A DNA stretch of 32,000 nucleotides from Trichodesmium erythraeum IMS101 (GTDB lineage: Bacteria > Cyanobacteriota > Cyanobacteriia > Cyanobacteriales > Microcoleaceae), in contig NC_008312.1 in NCBI RefSeq assembly GCF_000014265.1, forward strand, positions 5,280,001-5,312,000, read 5' to 3'. The first letter of the stretch is position 1; each line of letters starts with the position of its first letter. A program made the position numbers and the translations under genes. Shown here one piece after another: positions 5,155 through 24,766 of this stretch. Under the pieces are notes generated by a model, which was not told the DNA's origin, made no database searches, and saw nothing but the letters and a program-made list of their open reading frames with translations.

Positions 5155-8100
5155 TTACATTCCCGCTACGTCCCAAGCTGAGCCAAAACCTCCGGGGTTA
5201 ACTGTTTGATTAGGTGTGCCGTCATCATTCATCAACCAAATCCTGTTAGCTCCACTTTGATCACGCCAGTGAATGTCTGCCACTCCATCAGTATTGAAAT
5301 CTGCTACTCCGGCTACATCCCAAGCTAAACCAAGGATTCCGGGGTGAACTGTTTGATTACGTGTACCGTCATCATTCATCAACCAAATCCTGTTTTGTCC
5401 ATTGTTATGACTTTGATGACGCCAGAGAATGTCATCCACTCCATCGGCATTGAAATCTGCTACTCCGGCTACATCCCAAGCTAAACCAAGGATTCCGGGG
5501 TGAACTGTTTGATTACGTGTACCGTCATCATTCATCAACCAAATCCTGTTTTGTCCATTGTTATGACTTTGATGACGCCAGAGAATGTCATCCACTCCAT
5601 CGGCATTGAAATCTGCTACTCCGGCTACATCCCAAGCTGAACGAAAACTTCCGGGGTTAACTGTTTGATTACGTGTACCGTCATCATTCATCAACCAAAT
5701 CCTGTTTGGTCCATTTTTATGACTTTGATGACGCCAGAGAATGTCATCTACTCCATCAGTATTGAAATCTGCTACTCCGGCTACATCCCAAGCTGAATGG
5801 AAATTTCCGGGGTTAACTGTTTGATTACGTGTGCCGTCATCATTCATCAGCCAAATCCTGTTTGGTCCATTTTTATGACTTTGATGACGCCAGAGAATGT
5901 CTGCCACTCCATCAGTATTGAAATCTGCTACTCCGGCTACATCCCAAGCTGAACCAAAACTTCCGGGGTTAACTGTTTGATTACGTGTACCGTCATCATT
6001 CATCAGCCAAATCCTGTTTGGTCCATTTTTATGACTTTTATGACGCCAGAGAATGTCTGCCACTCCATCAGCATTGAAATCAAACTGGACTGGTTCACTT
6101 TCGTCGATATCGTTAACATTAATGGTCAACTGTTCTTGATAGCTGGCTACGTTTCTATCAGTAGTTTGAACTCGGATATTATAACTAGACTGACTTTCAT
6201 AGTCTGGGGAATCATTGATTCTTAGTTGGTCAGCCTCAATAGTGAAGGCTTGGTTATCTTTATCTCCCTCACCTGTTACTAATTCATAAGTAAAGCTATC
6301 TCCTGAGTCGGGGTCGACGGTGTAAAATTCACCAACTACGCTGTTAGGTGCTACGTTTTCGTCAATATTTTTGTTGCCAAGGTCGAGGTCAGTGGGAGCT
6401 TCATTAATATCGTTAACATTAATGGTCAACTGTTCTTGATAGCTGGCTACGTTTCTATCAGTAGTCTGAACTCGGATATTATAAGTAGGCTTAGTTTCAA
6501 AATCTGGAGAACTATTGATTTTCAGTTGGTTACCTTCAATGGTGAAGGTTTGGTTATCTGTATCTCCCTCTCCTGCTACTAATGCATAAGTAAAGGTGTC
6601 TCCAGGGTCGGGGTCGGTTGTGGAAAATGTTCCAACTACACTATTGGCTGCTACGTTTTCGTCAATGGTTTCTTTGTCAAGCTCCAGAGCTGTGGGAGCT
6701 TTGTTGCTCTCTTTAACTTTTGTCGTTGCTTGAGCTTGAGCTGTTGTTGTTTCTACTTGACCGACCTTGTCTGTGGCTACGCTGTAGAAGGCGTAGGTTT
6801 TGTCAATTTCTCCCGTGTAAGTGGCTGAGGTTTCTGTGGTGTCGTCTAACCATAATTCAAAGTCACCTCCGTTTTCCGAGACGTATATATCATAGGTTGC
6901 TACACCACTGCCTTGGTCTTCTCCTGTCCAGGTAACTTCGATTTCTGCACCGGATGTCGTTTCTGGGAGTTCCTCTACTTTGCTGGTGGGTGCTGTAATA
7001 TCAATGGTGTTGAATACGGGGGGGGTTGCTATGGGGTCGTTGGTGTCGAATACTATGCTGGCTTCCGCGTCGATGACATCCCCCGTCTGAACATCCTGCC
7101 CGGGACTGATGGTGTAGGATATAAAACCATCTCCTTCGGGTGGGTTGACGTTGGGTGGTAGGAACCCGGCGTCGAAGTCTGTGGGATATTCTCCGGTTTC
7201 CGGGTCGATGGTTTCTAGGGTGTATTTGACTGCTCCGGTTTCGGCGTTCATTTCCGCGTTGAAGTCTACGAAATAGCCGATGGTTTCTGTCAGGTCTATT
7301 CTTTCGGTGTAGTTTTGATAGCCAGGGGGGATTTCGATGTTGATGTCCCCGAAGCCAAAGTTGCCTAGTTCAAAGCTGTTCCAGTCTAGGTCGCTGTCTA
7401 GTTGTTGGGTGACGGTGACGAAGACTGCGGGGGCGTCTGCTTTTTCGGCGTCGTTTTCAAAGCGGATGGTGTAGGGGAGGGTTTGTGGGGATGTGAGCCA
7501 GTTTTCCTCCCCTACTCCTGCAGGGCCTATTATGTCGTTGGGATCCACCGCTCCTCCTATTGGTAGTTCTTGTCGCTCGACTGTATTGCAAGCACCAGTT
7601 ATACATAGTCCAATTATGTAGCCAGGGGTACCTATTGGTGTTGTAGGAGCAAAAATACCTGTAGCATCAGACAAAAATTCTGCTCCTGTTCCTGCCCTTT
7701 TGTCTGCAGAGTCAAAATCTAAATCTTTTGCTCTCTTTCCCCTTTCGCTGTCTTTCAAGTTCTTGTCATTAACCATATCAATAGCAGCACCCCTAGTAAG
7801 TAACCCAGATTTTCCACCATTTCCCAAATACTTTTTTTCTCTTTCTCTTAGCTTTTTTGCACGCTCTATCATCCGTTTTATGGAATCATTTTTATCTTTA
7901 CTTTTCAATCCCTCCGGATCAATATAATCTACCGGACCATTTCCAACATACCGATACAAATTCTCATCCCCCCCATTCAACCCAATAGGGTCCATAGAAA
8001 CAAACCGCCCAGTCTCCCCATCATAAAACCTTGCCCGCATAAAATCAAGACCATTAGCCTCCTCCATCACCCCAAACTGCCCCACAAACTCAAACTGATT

Positions 8101-16619: not shown

Positions 16620-19337
16620 GTGTCATACTCAACCCAGAACAGCCAAGAGCTGGCTCTGAAGACCTTATTTCCATTTCAATTAGATGAATTCCAGAAACAA
16701 GCGATCGCTGCCCTAAACGCTGGAAAATCAGTAGTCGTTTGTGCCCCCACAGGTTCAGGCAAAACCCTAATTGGAGAATATGCCATTTACCGGGCCTTAA
16801 GTCGTGGACAACGAGTATTCTATACCACACCTCTCAAAGCCCTATCAAACCAGAAATTGCGGGACTTCCGCAAATTATTTGGGCCAGAAAAAGTGGGCTT
16901 AGTGACAGGAGATACATCCGTCAACCGGGAAGCATCAGTTCTAGTGATGACTACAGAAATATTCCGCAATATGCTCTATGGTACTCACATTGGAGAAGTA
17001 GGCGCATCCTTAGAAAAAGTAGAAGCAGTAGTTTTAGACGAATGCCACTACATGAATGATCGCCAGCGAGGCACGGTCTGGGAAGAATCAATAATTTACT
17101 GCCCGCCAGAAATCCAACTATTAGCCCTCTCCGCTACAGTAGCTAATAGCGATCAACTCACAGACTGGATTCTCAGAGTACATGGGCCGACGGAATTAAT
17201 TTACTCTGATTTTCGACCAGTCCCTCTGAAATTTAATTTCTCCAATAGTAAAGGCTTATTTTCTTTACTCAATAGTAATCAAAAAAGAATCAATCCTCAA
17301 CTTAAGCCTAAAAGTAGACAACCAAAAACAGACAAAAAAGATAAAAAAGAAGAACCAGCCCTATCAACAGTATTATCTCAGCTCCAAGAGCGAGATATGT
17401 TACCAGCCATCTACTTCATATTCAGCCGTAGAGGATGCGCTCGTGCTGTAGCAGAAATAGCACAACTGAGCAATCTCACCTTAGTGAACCCAGAAGAAGC
17501 GGCTAAACTACAAAAACTAGTTCAGAAATTTCTCCAGCGCAACCCAGATCTAGGGAAATCTCAACAGTTAGAACCTCTCACTAGAGGAATAGCAGCTCAC
17601 CATGCCGGAATGTTACCAGTCTGGAAAGGATTAGTTGAGGAATTATTTCAGCAAGGTTTAATCAAAGTAGTATTTGCTACCGAAACCTTGGCTGCAGGAA
17701 TAAACATGCCAGCTCGTACAACTGTTATCTCCAGTCTCTCAAAACGCACAGATGATGGGCACCGACTCCTAAAACCATCAGAATTTCTGCAAATGGCAGG
17801 TAGGGCAGGACGACGAGGGATGGATATTCAAGGTTATGTTGTAACTGTACAAACTAGGTTTGAGGGGGTCAAAGAGGCAGCTTATTTGGCAACTTCAGGA
17901 GCTGACCCCCTGGTGAGCCAGTTTACTCCTAGCTATGGTATGGTGCTGAATTTACTACAAACTCATACTTTGCAGGAGGCAAAAGATTTAGTAGAACGTA
18001 GTTTTGGTCAGTATTTGTCTACCCTATCTTTATTGCCAGAGAGAAAAGAAATTGAACTCAAGGAAAAGGAGTTGAAAGCTCTAGAAAATAAACTGGGAAT
18101 TTATGAAGATAATGATTGGATTAATCTTGAACAACTACTGGCTAGTTATGAAAAGTTACGGGGAAAAGTCAAAGAGGAGAAACGACTACTGAGGATTTTG
18201 CAAAGGCAGGCAGAGGAAACTCGAATTAGGGAAATGTCTTTGTCTTTGTCTTTTGCAATTTTGGGAACTGTGCTTAGTTTGAAAGGAAAGCATGTTCCTA
18301 CTGCGAAAAAGTCTACTGCAGAACCTATTCCAGCCGTGTTAGTAGCAAAAGTTCCTGGTTCTGGTCAGTCTTCTTATTCCTTGTGTTTGGGTAAGGATAA
18401 TCGATGGTATATAGTAGGAGCAATGGATGTAATGACTTTGCAGGCGGACTTCCCTCGGTTGGCTGCTGTGGACTACATGGAAGTCCCTGAAGAGATGGGT
18501 TCTCGTTTAGGTCAATGTCGCAAGGGAGATGAAATTTCTCTGGTTTTGGCTCAACAAATTCCAGCGGTACCGCTTCCGGTAGATCCTCCAGAAGTTTTAG
18601 CACAAATGCAGAAACTGGCAATATGTGAAGCAGAAGCTGAGGCACACCCTCTGAAGGAGTGGGGGAACCCTCGTACTCTGATCAAGGGTTGGCGACGGGT
18701 AGAAATGTTGAGGGCTGAAATAGAGGATCGCCAGAGAGAGTTGGAGGATAAGTTAGCACGTCACTGGCAAGAGTTTCTCCATCTAATTGAAATTTTGCAA
18801 TATTTTGGCTGTCTCCATGGGGTCGAGCCGACTGAGGTTGGTCAAGCTTGTGCGGCAATTCGGGGTGATAATGAATTATGGCTTGGTTTGGTCTTGATGT
18901 CTGGATCTTTTGACGAACTTGACCCACACCATTTGGCTACTGCTTGTGCTGGTCTGGTGACAGAGATTACTAGACCTGATAGTTGGACTCGTTATGAGTT
19001 GTCTGTTGAGGTGAAGGAGGCAATGGCAAGTTTGCGCAATTTACGACATCAGTTATTTCAGGTGCAGCATCGGCATCAGGTGGCTTTGCCTGTCTGGTTG
19101 GAGCGGGATTTGATTGCTTTGGTTGAACAGTGGGCTTTGGGAGTGGAATGGGAGGAGCTAGTAAACAATGCAAGTCTTGATGAGGGTGATGTTGTCCGGA
19201 TGTTACGTCGGACTTTGGATTTTTTGTCTCAGATTCCTCATGTGCCTTGTTTGTCGGATGCTTTACGACGGAATGCTCATCGTGCTATGCAGTTGATTGA
19301 TCGTTTCCCTGTGAATGAAGTGGTTGAACCAGAATAA
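16620..19337 (+). CDS. Ski2-like / HelY-type DEAD/DEAH-box (superfamily 2) RNA helicase with a DSHCT-like C-terminal domain
   Basis: 905-aa ORF with motif I CAPTGSGKT, motif II VLDECHYM, motif III LSATV, motif VI QMAGRAGRRG, and a C-terminal LDEGDVVRMLRRTLDFLSQI block typical of DSHCT. The only possible start is GTG at 16620, immediately after an in-frame TAG. Confidence 0.9.
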   Translation: MSYSTQNSQELALKTLFPFQLDEFQKQAIAALNAGKSVVVCAPTGSGKTLIGEYAIYRALSRGQRVFYTTPLKALSNQKLRDFRKLFGPEKVGLVTGDTSVNREASVLVMTTEIFRNMLYGTHIGEVGASLEKVEAVVLDECHYMNDRQRGTVWEESIIYCPPEIQLLALSATVANSDQLTDWILRVHGPTELIYSDFRPVPLKFNFSNSKGLFSLLNSNQKRINPQLKPKSRQPKTDKKDKKEEPALSTVLSQLQERDMLPAIYFIFSRRGCARAVAEIAQLSNLTLVNPEEAAKLQKLVQKFLQRNPDLGKSQQLEPLTRGIAAHHAGMLPVWKGLVEELFQQGLIKVVFATETLAAGINMPARTTVISSLSKRTDDGHRLLKPSEFLQMAGRAGRRGMDIQGYVVTVQTRFEGVKEAAYLATSGADPLVSQFTPSYGMVLNLLQTHTLQEAKDLVERSFGQYLSTLSLLPERKEIELKEKELKALENKLGIYEDNDWINLEQLLASYEKLRGKVKEEKRLLRILQRQAEETRIREMSLSLSFAILGTVLSLKGKHVPTAKKSTAEPIPAVLVAKVPGSGQSSYSLCLGKDNRWYIVGAMDVMTLQADFPRLAAVDYMEVPEEMGSRLGQCRKGDEISLVLAQQIPAVPLPVDPPEVLAQMQKLAICEAEAEAHPLKEWGNPRTLIKGWRRVEMLRAEIEDRQRELEDKLARHWQEFLHLIEILQYFGCLHGVEPTEVGQACAAIRGDNELWLGLVLMSGSFDELDPHHLATACAGLVTEITRPDSWTRYELSVEVKEAMASLRNLRHQLFQVQHRHQVALPVWLERDLIALVEQWALGVEWEELVNNASLDEGDVVRMLRRTLDFLSQIPHVPCLSDALRRNAHRAMQLIDRFPVNEVVEPE

Positions 19338-19485
19338 TGATTTGACTTTTCTAGGGTTACAATATCCTAGATTTTTAGCTAATATCATTATTCTAAATAT
19401 GTTTGATTTTTTATGAGGTTTCTCCTGCAAATTCTCTTTAATTCAATCTTTATACTGTTTTTCCAATTTTGCTGTTTTTGCAGAC

Positions 19486-20740
19486 TTGAATAAAAAGTCA
19501 TGTCTATGGGCAAGTTATCCCCATTAATTACATAATACCATGGCTTTGAGGGGGATGCAAGAGAAATATCTGTAGTTTTTTGGAGCTTCACAGAATGCAA
19601 AAGTAGATTAATCATCCCCAGATGAATTCTTGGTTTAGATAAAAAAAATGGGTGTTTTACCAATTTATGGTGTTTTTTTTGATGAGCGATCGCTTCATCT
19701 AAAATCAGAAGTTTTGAGTTAGCCAAAACTTAGCCGAGGAAAGCCCAGTTTAAAATTTATTCTATTTGAATAAAAAGTCATGTCTATGGGCAAGTTATCC
19801 CCATTAATTACATAATACCATGGCTTTGAGGGGGATGCAAGAGAAATATCTGTAGTTTTTTGGAGCTTCACAGAATGCAAAAGTAGATTAATCATCCCCA
19901 GATGAATTCTTGGTTTAGATAAAAAAAAATGGGTGTTTTACCAATTTATGGTGTTTTTTTTGATGAGCGATCGCTTCATCTAAAATCAGAAGTTTTGAGT
20001 TAGCCAAAACTTAGCCGAGGAAAGCCCAGTTTAAAATTTATTCTATTTGAATAAAAAGTCATGTCTATGGGCAAGTTATCCCCATTAATTACATAATACC
20101 ATGGCTTTAAGGGGGATGCAAGAGAAATATCTGTAGTTTTTTTGGAGCTTCACAGAATGCAAAAGTAGATTAATCATCCCCAGATGAATTCTTGGTTTAG
20201 ATAAAAAAAATGGGTGTTTTACCAATTTATGGTGTTTTTTTTGATGAGCGATCGCTTCATCTAAAATCAGAAGTTTTGAGTTAGCCAAAACTTAGCCGAG
20301 GAAAGCCCAGTTTAAAATTTATTCTATTTGAATAAAAAGTCATGTCTATGGGCAAGTTATCCCCATTAATTACATAATACCATGGCTTTGAGGCGGATGC
20401 AAGAGAAATATCTGTAGTTTTTTTGGAGCTTCACAGAATGCAAAAGTAGATTAATCATCCCCAGATGAATTCTTGGTTTAGATAAAAAAAATGGGTGTTT
20501 TACCAATTTATGGTGTTTTTTTTGATGAGCGATCGCTTCATCTAAAATCAGAAGTTTTGAGTTAGCCAAAACTTAGCCGAGGAAAGCCCTGTTTAAAATT
20601 TATTCTATTTGAATAAAAAGTCATGTTTAGGGGCAAGTTACCCCCATTAATTACACAATATCATGGTTTTGAGGGGGATGCAAGGGGAAGACCTGTAGTT
20701 TTTTTTGGAGCTTCACAGAATGAAAAGTAGATTAGATCAT
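19486..20740. repeat. tandem array of a 280-281 bp unit: 4 near-identical full copies plus 1 truncated, diverged copy; apparently non-coding
   Basis: The unit start ttgaataaaaagtcatgtctatggg occurs at 19486, 19766, 20047, 20328 and 20609 (the last diverged: ...gtcatgtttagggg). Copies differ by a few substitutions and by homopolymer-length changes. Confidence 0.95.
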
Positions 20741-21466: not shown

Positions 21467-24400
21467 ATGAATCAACAAAAACAAAAAAAAGCTTTGTCTA
21501 AAAAAAATTTACTACTTCTACCAAGTTTGTTAGGTGCATTACTAAGTTTAATGGTACTGTTACCAAAAGCTGGTAGAGCTAGTGTTTTATTAGGGATAAT
21601 TCGAGACTTCCAGAATACAGATGAATGGAATCAAGTTATTAGACGAATAGATGCTCTCGGTATTAGTTATGAACCAATTGATTTAAGACAAATAAAAACA
21701 GTAGATGAGCTATCTGGGGTAAGGGTGATCTTTTTACCAAATATTGAAGTTTTAACTGAACCTCAAGTACAAATTATTGAAGAGTGGGTGAAGGGTGGAG
21801 GAAAATTAATAGCTAGTGGTCAAATAGGTCAAAAATCTCAGTTAGGAGTAAGGCAAAAGTTGCGATCGCTACTTGGTTCTTACTGGGCTTTTCCTCTAAG
21901 TCAACCGACAATACCAGAACCCAAATATCGTTGTTTAGATCTAACTTGTACAAAATCTACAAATTGGGCACCAAAAACCAATAATGTAGGTACAGTCACA
22001 GGTGGAATATTAATTCCAGCCGGTTTAAATAGCACAACTGCAGCTACTTGGAAGGGAACTTCTGGTTCTTCAGCAGTAGTAATTACTCCTCAAGTTACTT
22101 ATTTGGGTTGGCATTGGGGAAATACTGAATCTGCTGCTGTGGATAGTATTTGGTTGCAGGCTATTTTGAATCGTTATCAAGGTCAACCAGAATTTAGTGC
22201 CAGAAATAATAATATTTTTTCTTTAGAAAATAATAGACGGAGTGTATCTGATGCTAATAACTCCAACCCGGTAAAAATTCACCCAAGAAGTAACCCTTCG
22301 CCGAGTTCAAGGAAGGAAAGTGTGAGTCCAGTTAGAGTTCAACCTAAAAGGAATTCTGTAAATACTGGGGAAAATTCAAATATAAATCCAACTGCTCCTA
22401 TAGCTGAAAATTCAATTGTAAATGAAGATAATATTTGGCTGAGAAGGCAGGAAAAGAAGAGCGGTACTGAAAACGAACCAGAAAATTTGATTCAAGCAAG
22501 GGAAGAATTAGGTAGCCAAAATAGTAATTTAGGATCAAAAATAACAACGGTTCCTGAAAGTGAAATTGTTGGTGGGAAAGATACTGCTGTTAGTGAGTCT
22601 GAAAATTCAACTACAGAGACTACTAATAATAGAGGTAGGAATATTTGGCAAAGGCTCCAACAAGAAAAAGAAGAACAAAATCAGGCTAGTGAAGTTGTTG
22701 GTGAGAAAGATCAAGTTATTGACTCAAGTACTAACTCTACTCTACAAAATAATAATAGGGGGAGTATTTGGAACCGGACTCAAGAAGAAACAAAAACAAG
22801 GGCATCATCTTCTCGCCGTCATCCTATAATGCGCTTACTCAGGTCTCTACCACCAATAGAAGTACCAAGTGCTCAAAGAGACCCTTCATCAGGATCAGCA
22901 TCTCCTGGTTTAGATATTCGACAAGGAAATTATCCAATTAGCAGGGCGAAAGCTTATGCCATGTTAGAGGAATTAAATAATCTCCTTGGTAGATTTGAAA
23001 GCGCATTGATAGCAGCTAAATCTGCAAATGTAAAAGTTGATCTGGCAGCAGATGATGTGAGTTTGTTGGCTGCGAGTACTGGCAATGCTAGGTTTATTGC
23101 TCAAAGAAATCAAAAAATTAGGGGTGGTCAACAAGTTATTGTTAAAGTGCGTCAGGTAATTCAAAATTTTCCCCAACAGGTAAAAGCTAAACAATACGCT
23201 GCTGCGAGAAACCAATGGCTACAAGCAAGGCAAATGTTGTGGAATAACTACCCGACTGATGGTCAAAGAGCGGGAGCTGAGATTCGAGCTGTTTGGTTAG
23301 ACCGGGGAACAATTGTGAGGGCGAGGTCTGAAAGAGGTTTGGCTGGGGTATTTAACCGACTTGCTGCTGCTGGTATTAATACTGTTTTCTTTGAAACCAT
23401 TAATGCTGGTTATACGATTTATCCTAGTAATGTTGCTCCAAGACAAAATCCTTTGACAACTTCTTGGGATCCTCTGAAGGCGGCGGTGAAGTTAGCCCAC
23501 GAAAGGAATATGGAGTTACACCCTTGGATTTGGGCGTTTGCAGTGGGGAACAAAGCTCATAACCAGGCTCTTGGTCAAGGAGATAGTTATTTGGGTCCGG
23601 TAATTTCGGCTCATCCTAGTTGGGTGATGACTGATAAAAGGGGTCGCAAAAGACATCCTTTAGATGGCAAGGTTTATATGGATCCTGCGAATCCTGAGGT
23701 GAGGCAATATTTGCTGAATATAATAGATGAAATTGCTAGTCGGTATGAGGTTGATGGGATTCACCTTGACTATATTCGCTATCCTTTTCAAAATCCTGAA
23801 CGGAATTTTTCTTATGGTTATAGTACAATAGCGCGTAATCAGTTTCGGCAGTTGTATGGGATAGATCCGATGAAGATTTCGTCACGGGATCGCCAGAATT
23901 TGTGGAGGTGGACTGAGTTTAAGATTAACCAAGTTAATAGTTTTGTTGCTAATACTTCTAGTTTTCTCAAAAAGAAGTATCCAAGGTTAATTTTTTCGGT
24001 AGCGGTGTTTCCTTTTCCTCGTCATCAACGCTTTGATCAAATTCAGCAAGACTGGGAAAGTTGGGTTATGAATGAGGATATTGATTTGTTGACTCCTATG
24101 ACTTACGCTTTAGATACAAATCGTTTTCAGCGAATAACTCAACCGCTGACAAATACTGGAGTGTTAGGTAGTACTTTGATAACGCCGGCGGTTAAGCTTT
24201 TGAATATTCCTGAAATTGTAGCAGTAGACCAAATTCAAGCAGCTCGAGATTTACCTACTGGGGGTTATATTATTTTTGCGGCGGAAAGAATTACTGGTGG
24301 TTTCCATGGATTTTTAACTCGTACTCAAGGTGGGGTAGAAATGGATAATACTAGAAGAGCTTCATTAAATACTTTTGGTAAAACAGCTAAAGTTGTGGAG

Positions 24401-24766
24401 GGTGTAATTCCTTACCGTCAACCATTTATTGCTGCTGCAGATCGTTTTCAAGCTTTGAAAAAAGAATGGAGTTTTTTGTTGGGAAATGAGCAACTTTTCC
24501 TGAGGGAGCTTCAGCTTGAGAGTTGGGGTAATGAGGTAGGGGAGTTAGCAACAGCTTTGGAAAATTTGGCTGATAGTCCTGATCATAGTAATTTTAATAT
24601 TGCTAAGAGAAAGCTGAGGAAATTCCAGTTAAAATTTAGAAGTAATATGAGTGATCATGCTAGGCAAAATGCTTATCAAGTTCAGACTTGGCAAAATCGT
24701 TTGACAGCTTTGGAGATGTTGTTAAATTATGGGGAAAGGGTCAAGTTAAATGATCAGAGGTTTTAA
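21467..24766 (+). CDS. secreted glycoside-hydrolase-like family 10 (GHL10 / DUF187) protein with an N-terminal domain and a long low-complexity linker
   Basis: 1,099-aa ORF with a gaggag Shine-Dalgarno sequence before the ATG and a signal-peptide-like N-terminus (KKNLLLLPSLLGALLSLMVLLPKAGRA). The C-terminal half reads AVWLDRGTI...INTVFFETINAGYTIYPS...WDPLKAAVKLAHERNMELHPWIW...YMDPANPEVRQYLLNIIDEIASRYEVDGIHLDYIRYP, which is characteristic of GHL10. Confidence 0.8.
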   Translation: MNQQKQKKALSKKNLLLLPSLLGALLSLMVLLPKAGRASVLLGIIRDFQNTDEWNQVIRRIDALGISYEPIDLRQIKTVDELSGVRVIFLPNIEVLTEPQVQIIEEWVKGGGKLIASGQIGQKSQLGVRQKLRSLLGSYWAFPLSQPTIPEPKYRCLDLTCTKSTNWAPKTNNVGTVTGGILIPAGLNSTTAATWKGTSGSSAVVITPQVTYLGWHWGNTESAAVDSIWLQAILNRYQGQPEFSARNNNIFSLENNRRSVSDANNSNPVKIHPRSNPSPSSRKESVSPVRVQPKRNSVNTGENSNINPTAPIAENSIVNEDNIWLRRQEKKSGTENEPENLIQAREELGSQNSNLGSKITTVPESEIVGGKDTAVSESENSTTETTNNRGRNIWQRLQQEKEEQNQASEVVGEKDQVIDSSTNSTLQNNNRGSIWNRTQEETKTRASSSRRHPIMRLLRSLPPIEVPSAQRDPSSGSASPGLDIRQGNYPISRAKAYAMLEELNNLLGRFESALIAAKSANVKVDLAADDVSLLAASTGNARFIAQRNQKIRGGQQVIVKVRQVIQNFPQQVKAKQYAAARNQWLQARQMLWNNYPTDGQRAGAEIRAVWLDRGTIVRARSERGLAGVFNRLAAAGINTVFFETINAGYTIYPSNVAPRQNPLTTSWDPLKAAVKLAHERNMELHPWIWAFAVGNKAHNQALGQGDSYLGPVISAHPSWVMTDKRGRKRHPLDGKVYMDPANPEVRQYLLNIIDEIASRYEVDGIHLDYIRYPFQNPERNFSYGYSTIARNQFRQLYGIDPMKISSRDRQNLWRWTEFKINQVNSFVANTSSFLKKKYPRLIFSVAVFPFPRHQRFDQIQQDWESWVMNEDIDLLTPMTYALDTNRFQRITQPLTNTGVLGSTLITPAVKLLNIPEIVAVDQIQAARDLPTGGYIIFAAERITGGFHGFLTRTQGGVEMDNTRRASLNTFGKTAKVVEGVIPYRQPFIAAADRFQALKKEWSFLLGNEQLFLRELQLESWGNEVGELATALENLADSPDHSNFNIAKRKLRKFQLKFRSNMSDHARQNAYQVQTWQNRLTALEMLLNYGERVKLNDQRF

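Follow-up and report, generated by a model that had tools for sequence, protein, structure and literature searches.

The window analyzed here, a 32,000-nt stretch taken from the genome of Trichodesmium erythraeum IMS101 (NC_008312.1, positions 5,280,001 to 5,312,000; coordinates below refer to this stretch unless another contig is named), contains a tandem array of 281-bp repeats flanked by the genes for a DSH-type DEAD-box helicase (16620-19337, plus strand) and a GHL10 protein (21467-24766, plus strand). The nearest relatives of the helicase are found in Trichodesmium sp. metagenome-assembled genomes (MAGs; 84-87%), in Okeania (80-84%) and in Microcoleaceae MAGs, and the host is therefore a non-heterocystous filamentous cyanobacterium of the Trichodesmium/Okeania(/Dapis) clade. 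This kinship with Trichodesmium and Okeania makes the heterocyst-centered framing of the initial annotation, which had pointed to the NsiR1 small RNA (sRNA) array, wrong for this host. Among the three candidates that annotation had put forward (a noncoding RNA (ncRNA) gene array, a protein-binding or structural satellite, and a recent amplification), the ncRNA gene array is the best supported one, as set out below.

Tandem Repeats Finder (TRF) reported a single tandem array (19486-20740; period 281, 4.5 copies, 97% matches, score 2371), bearing out the repeat structure recognized initially, and sequence reading together with unit alignment reproduced the same unit boundaries. The full units share 98.9-100% identity in BLAST comparisons; the last unit, already described as shortened and diverged, aligns at 89.5% identity across 131-133 nt and then ends. 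All differences previously listed between full units were found again (G>A at 20109, G>C at 20394, T6 versus T7, A8 versus A9), and unit alignment added an A>T change near 20590 in unit 4. The HIP1 palindrome (GCGATCGC) recurs at 19686, 19967, 20248 and 20529, and each full unit indeed contains one A8/9-N24-T8 element and one GTTTTG-N7-CAAAAC hairpin. The NsiR1-associated motif TCCGGA is missing, as stated earlier, with no occurrence in a sequence search of 19486-20740.

The open reading frames (ORFs) of the array are those first listed, all TTG-initiated and on the minus strand: one of 112 aa (19388-19726), none in unit 2, and one of 67 aa in each of units 3 and 4. The designation as non-coding holds, given that the frames differ between units through the T6/T7 and A8/A9 tracts. 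A Pfam search of the ORFs returned only a sub-threshold AID match (E = 0.079; 13 bits versus a 27-bit cut-off), and tblastn found them intact only in the same species, with short low-identity stretches over the conserved core (see below) elsewhere. No homologue of the 67-aa ORF was found in other genomes, its exact protein being on record solely for this locus in other assemblies of the species. A protein-coding gene was rejected on these grounds, that is, the broken frame between copies, the lack of a credible Pfam match and the lack of a homologue outside the species. A CRISPR array, with its short repeats of ~23-50 nt and unique spacers, was dismissed as well; in line with the initial annotation, the 281-bp units abut and have no unique spacers between them.

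Each 281-bp unit consists of a conserved core of ~120 nt and a fast-evolving spacer of ~160 nt. When one unit was compared with syntenic loci by BLAST, only unit positions 1-133 aligned in other genera, with identities of 79% in Okeania sp. SIO1I7, 75% in O. hirsuta and 73% in Trichodesmium MAG_R04. The comparison with relatives that had been proposed initially thereby bore fruit in part: it returned core copies at the orthologous helicase site, but no matches past position ~133 in other genera. The core opens with a head (TTGAATAAAAAGTCATG) and, after a T-run, closes with a tail (GGAGCTTCACArAATG; GGAGCTTCACAGAATG in unit 1). Downstream of the helicase and in the same orientation, it occurs as five tandem units in Okeania sp. 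SIO1I7, as one unit in O. hirsuta and as one degenerate unit in the MAG_R04 lineage; a further contig (L094) bears a 3-copy array at what is apparently the Okeania helicase locus. Occupancy of the helicase site is patchy among relatives, and where the element is absent, synteny is also broken.

To chart the core beyond this site, metagenome contigs were scanned for the exact pattern head-N70-100-tail. The scan returned 19 loci in at least 12 gene contexts, on contigs of 32-38% G+C in which HIP1 is present; such an exact pattern biases the apparent invariance of head and tail, which is partly an artefact in these loci (L087-L105). A second orthologous site lies downstream of clpX, represented by L091, L095 and Dapis sp. 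BLCC M172 (L173; nhmmer E = 7e-27). The ClpX encoded on L095 is 100% identical to that of Trichodesmium sp. MO_231.B1 and 97-98% identical to those of Okeania, Hydrocoleum and Dapis. Besides the helicase and clpX sites, the core occupies at least 10 other intergenic contexts, often in 2-3 tandem copies with a period of ~236-330 nt (more widely spaced in L094). The neighboring genes are mutually unrelated (ClpX, SOD, Leu/Phe-tRNA protein transferase, a TPR protein, DUF488, a GTPase, a restriction-modification pair, glycogen debranching enzyme, NUDIX, Uma2, PPTase and TnpB), and most family copies sit in 3' intergenic regions between convergent genes.

Outside this clade the family was not encountered: an nhmmer profile search of 2.13 Mb returned 0 copies in ~60 loci of Microcoleus, Nostoc, Planktothrix, Leptolyngbya and others, and viral contigs gave one chance head match and 53 matches to the tail 16-mer, none of them with the remaining core. 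Neither the window nor the 19 family loci had an Rfam match at the gathering score, with chance-level matches only at E values up to 10; NsiR1 itself presumably has an Rfam model. A literature search with the head and tail sequence strings retrieved unrelated papers only. The core is thus a repeat family of the Trichodesmium/Okeania/Dapis clade, apparently undescribed, which readily builds short tandem arrays, is retained at orthologous sites in different genera and differs in copy number between strains. Where the core is concerned, the idea that unique sequence was recently and neutrally amplified is wrong: these first ~120 nt of the unit belong to a conserved family and are found at the orthologous site in other genera and at many other loci.

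With head and tail defined, several further identities were weighed. Small ORFs starting from the ATG in the head (either strand) or after the tail are not conserved. An integron attC site was rejected: GTTGAAT at the head fits the GTTRRRY consensus, but inspection found no RYYYAAC partner within 150 nt. As for a transposon-derived element, neither terminal inverted repeats, as claimed before, nor a target-site duplication were seen in the window's unit; members of one subfamily (B) carry an inverted tail-like motif upstream of the head. An IS200/IS605 end or a TnpB omega RNA was discarded, with TnpB adjoining the core in only two contexts (L099/L102 and L089). In the context whose IS ends were inspected (L099, 160-1700; L102, 6500-8030), an IS1341-type TnpB element is inserted ~20-40 nt from the family copy and has left-end and right-end hairpins of its own, distinct from the core; its tnpB is frameshifted in L102.

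The spacer, by contrast with the core, is not conserved beyond the species, except for a HIP1 module (TTTTGATGAGCGATCGC) common to Okeania-type arrays. In unit 1 it contains a degenerate second tail-like motif, the A8-N24-T8 element (19641-19680) and HIP1 within TTTTGATGAGCGATCGC (19686). The initial annotation had placed its weight on HIP1, A8-N24-T8 and the GTTTTG hairpin, all of which fall into this poorly conserved part (the short HIP1 module excepted), and had missed the conserved features, that is, the head, the minus-strand promoter and YUYG motif described below, and the tail. Across the family, the tail-like motif also recurs separately, in direct orientation in subfamily-A units and inverted ~75 nt upstream of the head in subfamily B, and the modules TTTTGATGAGCGATCGC and GAACGGAGTTCTAT are shuffled between subfamilies. 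Two side observations concern such flanking sequence. Pelagic Trichodesmium contigs (L171, 2899-3361; also L168 and L172) have a different tandem repeat downstream of clpX (232 bp x 2), which has only the TTTTGATGAGCGATCGC module in common with the window's spacer and contains TTCCGGAA. In L093 (2412-2576, plus strand), a 54-aa ORF fragment (...LKPRAVRALQAGGKEAFKELLGNPNINIAKAIVEGWVKSE), maybe a pseudogene remnant, lies beyond the first head of a subfamily-A array.

Comparison among assemblies of the window's species spoke to the age of the array. Two of them (L166 and L167), with nearly identical flanks, carry 2.5 distinguishable copies assembled without gaps, and their units differ from one another more than the window's units do, implying that the array predates the strain split; further assemblies break, or are scaffolded with N-runs, inside the array. 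The four near-identical units of the window reflect recent expansion or homogenization, and the rise from ~2.5 to 4.5 copies seen in this strain may have been both recent and neutral. The core itself is under constraint: among the six units of the species, 21 core positions vary. Other family members show conservation of at least 90% in 46 of the 116 columns, and only two of the 21 variable positions fall there (hypergeometric P = 0.001; P = 0.016 with the 26 positions fixed by the search pattern removed). Within-species variation hence avoids family-conserved columns, and the family is under purifying selection.

Inspecting the core alignment revealed a promoter-like signature on the minus strand. 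The pattern TG[AG]TAnnnT was present in 35 of 36 distinct family copies, and a TTGCAT hexamer ends exactly 17 nt before the -10 hexamer, each of its bases being conserved in 29-33 of 35 copies. T-15, G-14, T-12, A-11 and T-7 are invariant and the inner positions free, matching the pattern expected of an extended -10 promoter. All five units of the window contain TTGCAT-17 nt-TGnTAnnnT, with predicted starts at A residues throughout, and both point differences among the full units fall inside the promoter spacer. In divergent subfamilies, CTGACA or TAGAAA takes the place of TTGCAT at unchanged spacing. Taken together, the family carries a position-fixed signature of the sigma-70 type, predicted to direct transcription along the minus strand. 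A plus-strand promoter was dropped, its -10 box not being conserved (a TAnnnT at the same place is possible in just 12 of 35 copies), and so was TTCACA-17-AATCAT, a site from a promoter scan that upon inspection proved not to be conserved in other genera. The array has no NtcA site (GTA-N8-TAC), and none of the HetR, CRP, SigF and sigma-28-like motifs that we considered fits consistently.

Other promoter-related observations were made along the way. A second promoter-like site, TAGACA-16-TAGAAT on the minus strand, spans the unit junctions (19759-19786, 20040-20067, 20321-20348 and 20602-20629); it has 9-10 of 12 matches (the final junction reads TAAACA) and is not shared by other genera. A ~55-nt spacer RNA could begin here and end at the spacer hairpin. 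In the MAG_R04 lineage, a ~140-nt hairpin insertion with a 16-bp inverted repeat (L001, 3490-3625) sits at the predicted start site, and in Tara contigs of the same lineage (L162 and L163, 7814-7895) a deletion takes out the -35 region; the single-copy element of this lineage is decaying.

Across 38 copies, the ~45 nt that follow the predicted start can be aligned gap-free; they represent the reverse complement of the head plus the adjacent GGGGCGAAC region. A YUYG motif (UUCG, CUCG, CUUG or UUUG) occupies fixed columns in 36 of these 38 copies and fits the YUNR loop motif of antisense RNAs. A 7-bp helix (GGRGUYRU/AUGACUU), directly followed by UUUUUAUU, was paired in 76.7% of cells, as opposed to 26-53% when the partner was slid by 1-3 columns. 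Read on the plus strand, it was paired in 50.4% of cells, and at least six of the seven pairs could form in 17 copies on the minus but in two copies on the plus strand. A plus-strand terminator before the tail was abandoned, with a hairpin predicted in only about half of the copies examined. Within the spacer, a scan for hairpins followed by U-runs detected a terminator-like hairpin (AAGUUUUG-N7-CAAAACUU, then CUGAUUUU), which is specific to the species and not conserved in the family. Relative to the start predicted for the unit on its right, this hairpin lies ~100 nt downstream.

Given these features, we favor, at about even confidence, a reading in which the array is a tandem set of five minus-strand sRNA transcription units of NsiR1-like design. 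RNA polymerase would initiate close to unit position 40, ~7 nt downstream of the -10 box, and read leftwards. The product would be a short noncoding RNA whose first ~45 nt, the most conserved transcribed sequence of the family, would present the YUYG (YUNR-like) motif, then CAUGAC and then UUUUUAUU. In many family members, this stretch could fold into a hairpin with a U-tract, terminating or attenuating transcription; in the window's units that hairpin is poor, and a more likely course for the RNA would be to extend over ~100 nt, as far as the spacer hairpin and its U-run. The five genes would have grown from ~2.5 to 4.5 copies by unequal recombination between units. More tentatively, and with rather more doubt than confidence, we propose the core to be a clade-wide, previously undescribed family of self-contained micro-transcription units, each combining a recognition block upstream with a promoter of the extended -10 type, a ~45-nt YUNR-type RNA and a terminating or attenuating hairpin/U-tract. 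The family would disperse and tandemly amplify in Trichodesmium, Okeania and Dapis, supplying regulatory RNAs or portable promoters.

A number of points weigh against five sRNA genes. Transcription and its strand are inferred from sequence, and the copies counted above are phylogenetically related, such that the counts overstate independence. The -35 box equals the E. coli consensus TTGACA at only three of six positions, and a generic consensus promoter scan did not list the conserved promoter, giving the junction site instead. The helix leans heavily on G.U pairs, remains unformed in the window's own units and, with an invariant 3' arm, offers no two-sided covariation; a competing GGGG/CCCC helix was paired in 64% of cells, without clear excess over controls. 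RNAalifold returned no consensus structure for the 36-copy core on either strand, and single-sequence folding gave z-scores of only -1 to -2, which are not significant. Structural support for an sRNA is modest. Head and tail, the most conserved blocks, are more invariant than a promoter or terminator requires, and the tail, located upstream of the promoter, is not accounted for by the model. Finally, two Okeania units (L034, 13322-13700 and 13627-13950) keep the head and YUYG region and lack the promoter, the promoter segment of both having been replaced by inverted post-tail sequence, which creates a long inverted repeat within the unit.

Some of these points would be explained by a mosaic intergenic repeat acting at the DNA level, akin to BIME/REP or miniature inverted-repeat transposable elements (MITEs), whose head and tail bind a protein (a nucleoid protein, recombinase, transposase or transcription factor) and whose promoter is incidental or carried along, the whole spreading as selfish or structural DNA. 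We regard this main rival as unlikely, albeit deserving of serious attention. It would accommodate the invariance of head and tail, neither of which is explained by a covarying structure, the tail's recurrence as an independent module, the shuffling of TTTTGATGAGCGATCGC and GAACGGAGTTCTAT, the bias toward 3' intergenic regions of convergent genes, the patchy helicase site and the promoterless Okeania units. Yet no target-site duplications or consistent terminal inverted repeats were found, nor was an associated transposase (the nearby TnpB elements having their own ends), and an array that only binds protein would not be expected to conserve, in a strand-asymmetric way, an extended -10 box and a -35 box at constant spacing. 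That several genera have retained the element at orthologous sites speaks for a host-level function. The same promoter could alternatively serve in cis, as a portable promoter or leader that drives or attenuates the gene beyond the head or sends antisense transcription into the 3' end of the gene upstream (the helicase in this case), its effect multiplied by the array. In five contexts a gene does lie beyond the head along the predicted direction, with the start codons of divergently oriented genes 116-118 nt from the head at three unrelated loci (Uma2, L088 1023/1139; NUDIX, L100 1047/1164; glycogen debranching enzyme, L092 12497/12615). Moreover, at both conserved sites the promoter faces back at the 3' end of helicase or clpX, and the hairpin and U-tract just after the start, competing with the alternative helix, could attenuate. 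We nevertheless consider a cis element improbable: most loci, as well as array units 2-5, have only another unit or spacer downstream, the flanking genes are functionally unrelated, and the helicase has its own conserved terminator before the array.

Neutral recent amplification of meaningless intergenic DNA, or an assembly artefact, would be in keeping with the near-identity of the four full units, the lower copy number or broken state of the array in other assemblies and the lack of spacer conservation outside the species. For the core this explanation is refuted, and overall we judge it very improbable, as different genera conserve the core at two orthologous sites and many other loci, variation within the species avoids the family-conserved columns, Okeania and metagenomes contain independent arrays of this family, and the 2.5 units of the other two assemblies are distinguishable and gap-free. 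Hardly credible, and largely refuted for the window, is a type I toxin-antitoxin or micro-peptide system, in which the tail (GGAG-N9-ATG) would start a tiny hydrophobic plus-strand ORF and the minus-strand RNA act as antitoxin. Tandemly repeated type I loci (ibs/sib, zor/orz) do exist in enterobacteria, subfamily-A tails are followed by mini-ORFs of the type MK[MIV][FL][VL][VIA][FL]H, and second tail-like motifs by ORFs of the type MKIFLVLLLG. In the window, however, the post-tail ORF has three codons and reads MQK-stop; across the family, it can be as short as 3 or longer than 30 codons, indels shift its frame, the nucleotides stay conserved beyond the stop codons, and AGCTTCACA does not vary, unlike the GG of the putative Shine-Dalgarno sequence. 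Nor would the predicted antisense RNA overlap the ORF.

Returning to the five putative sRNA genes, their design can be compared with known systems. NsiR1 genes are tandem, each with its own promoter, and yield an RNA of ~60 nt; they carry the DIF motif TCCGGA around -35 (PMC4030482). As in the NsiR1 array (Ionescu et al. 2010; PMC4030482), the window's units are cyanobacterial intergenic direct repeats of variable copy number between genomes, here with a predicted promoter and short RNA per repeat. They differ from NsiR1 in having neither sequence or Rfam similarity to it nor the DIF motif, in their dispersal at many loci and in the 281-bp unit with its long spacer; NsiR1 lies near hetF in heterocystous cyanobacteria, the present array beside the helicase and GHL10 genes of a non-heterocystous host. 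In T. erythraeum IMS101 itself, an array of more than 6 kb, comprising seven tandem repeats of 736-973 bp, yields the most abundant ncRNAs of the cell, ~260 nt in length (Pfreundt et al. 2014, PMC4143802). That array belongs to the same clade, likewise consists of non-coding repeats that are >96% identical, with a more diverged edge copy, and has one start site per repeat, comparable to the starts predicted here; its units, by contrast, have three times the length and take in the duplicated 3' end of a gene, and it was reported to lack similarity elsewhere in T. erythraeum or GenBank (PMC4143802), whereas the present core is found at many loci in several genera. On the favored reading, the window's array is analogous to both in design; it is unrelated to them in sequence.

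Enterobacterial SIB/QUAD repeats (encoding Sib sRNAs and ibs toxins) and OmrA/OmrB are short intergenic units, some of them in tandem, each with an sRNA promoter. The present family resembles them in its conserved ends, variable middle and conserved (here predicted) promoter, but it lacks a conserved toxin ORF or antisense overlap, is unrelated in sequence and stems from a different phylum. BIME/REP of E. coli and the Correia elements of Neisseria are mosaic intergenic repeats, some with promoter activity, with which the family shares modules in varying order and orientation, a preference for 3' intergenic regions and tandem clustering. It differs from these in having no palindromic REP unit, no detected terminal inverted repeats or target duplications, and orthologous sites kept across genera.

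Table 1 Coordinates of the array, its units and the features assigned to them within the window
Feature	Position	Strand	Evidence or details
Whole array	19486-20740		TRF; unit alignment; BLAST identities
Unit 1	19486-19765		Full
Unit 2	19766-20046		Full
Unit 3	20047-20327		Full
Unit 4	20328-20608		Full
Unit 5	20609-20740		Shortened, more diverged, whole core kept
Core, unit 1	19483-19599	-	nhmmer family profile E = 3e-26; head TTGAATAAAAAGTCATG 19486-19502; tail GGAGCTTCACAGAATG 19582-19597
Core, unit 2	19758-19879	-	nhmmer E = 1e-26; head 19766-19782; tail 19862-19877
Core, unit 3	20039-20161	-	nhmmer E = 1e-26; head 20047-20063; tail 20144-20159
Core, unit 4	20320-20442	-	nhmmer E = 5e-27; head 20328-20344; tail 20425-20440
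Core, unit 5	20601-20724	-	nhmmer E = 3e-28; head 20609-20625; tail 20707-20722
Predicted promoter, unit 1	19532-19560	-	-35 TTGCAT 19555-19560; 17-nt spacer, TG 19539-19540; -10 TATTAT 19532-19537; start ~A 19525
Predicted promoter, unit 2	19812-19840	-	-35 19835-19840; -10 19812-19817; start ~19805
Predicted promoter, unit 3	20093-20121	-	-35 20116-20121; -10 20093-20098; start ~20086
Predicted promoter, unit 4	20374-20402	-	-35 20397-20402; -10 20374-20379; start ~20367
Predicted promoter, unit 5	20655-20683	-	-35 TTGCAT 20678-20683; -10 TATTGT 20655-20660; start ~20648
Spacer, unit 1 (equivalents in units 2-4)	19600-19765		BLAST: no match past ~133 elsewhere; flank comparison
Spacer hairpin	19699-19731; repeated at 19980-20012, 20261-20293, 20542-20574	-	Hairpin and U-run scan; dG -8.1

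Elsewhere in the window, the helicase gene is followed by a terminator hairpin of its own (19350-19376, plus strand; TCTAGGGTTACAATATCCTAGA, then T5) between its stop codon and the array, which is kept in L001, L003 and L162. On the minus strand, a 3232-aa ORF (5155-14853) with DUF4347, RHS repeats, PPC, TIG, DUF7619, cadherin and FG-GAP domains encodes a giant, repeat-rich protein of the surface or toxin-like kind. Tandem DNA repeats occur in frame within this ORF, namely 357 bp x 7.8 (11470-14236), 156 bp x 6 (5161-6081) and 300 bp x 2 (6107-6701). Its 5' end overlaps by ~70 nt with a DDE_3/HTH_33 transposase ORF (14786-15877, minus strand), which we take to be IS630-like.

Among marine cyanobacteria, Trichodesmium and its relatives are of global importance. 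Non-coding sequence makes up about 40% of Trichodesmium's genome, and most of the promoter activity there goes into RNAs of unknown function (PMC4143802). A conserved, multi-copy, array-forming element with a defined predicted promoter offers a concrete handle on this fraction, and the family's nhmmer profile can be used for a census in complete genomes. The core family is a candidate regulatory RNA family, a possible portable promoter rewiring its neighbors, and a marker of rapid copy-number change between strains. If the proposed micro-transcription units prove true, they would account for part of the unusually large, promoter-rich non-coding fraction of these genomes.

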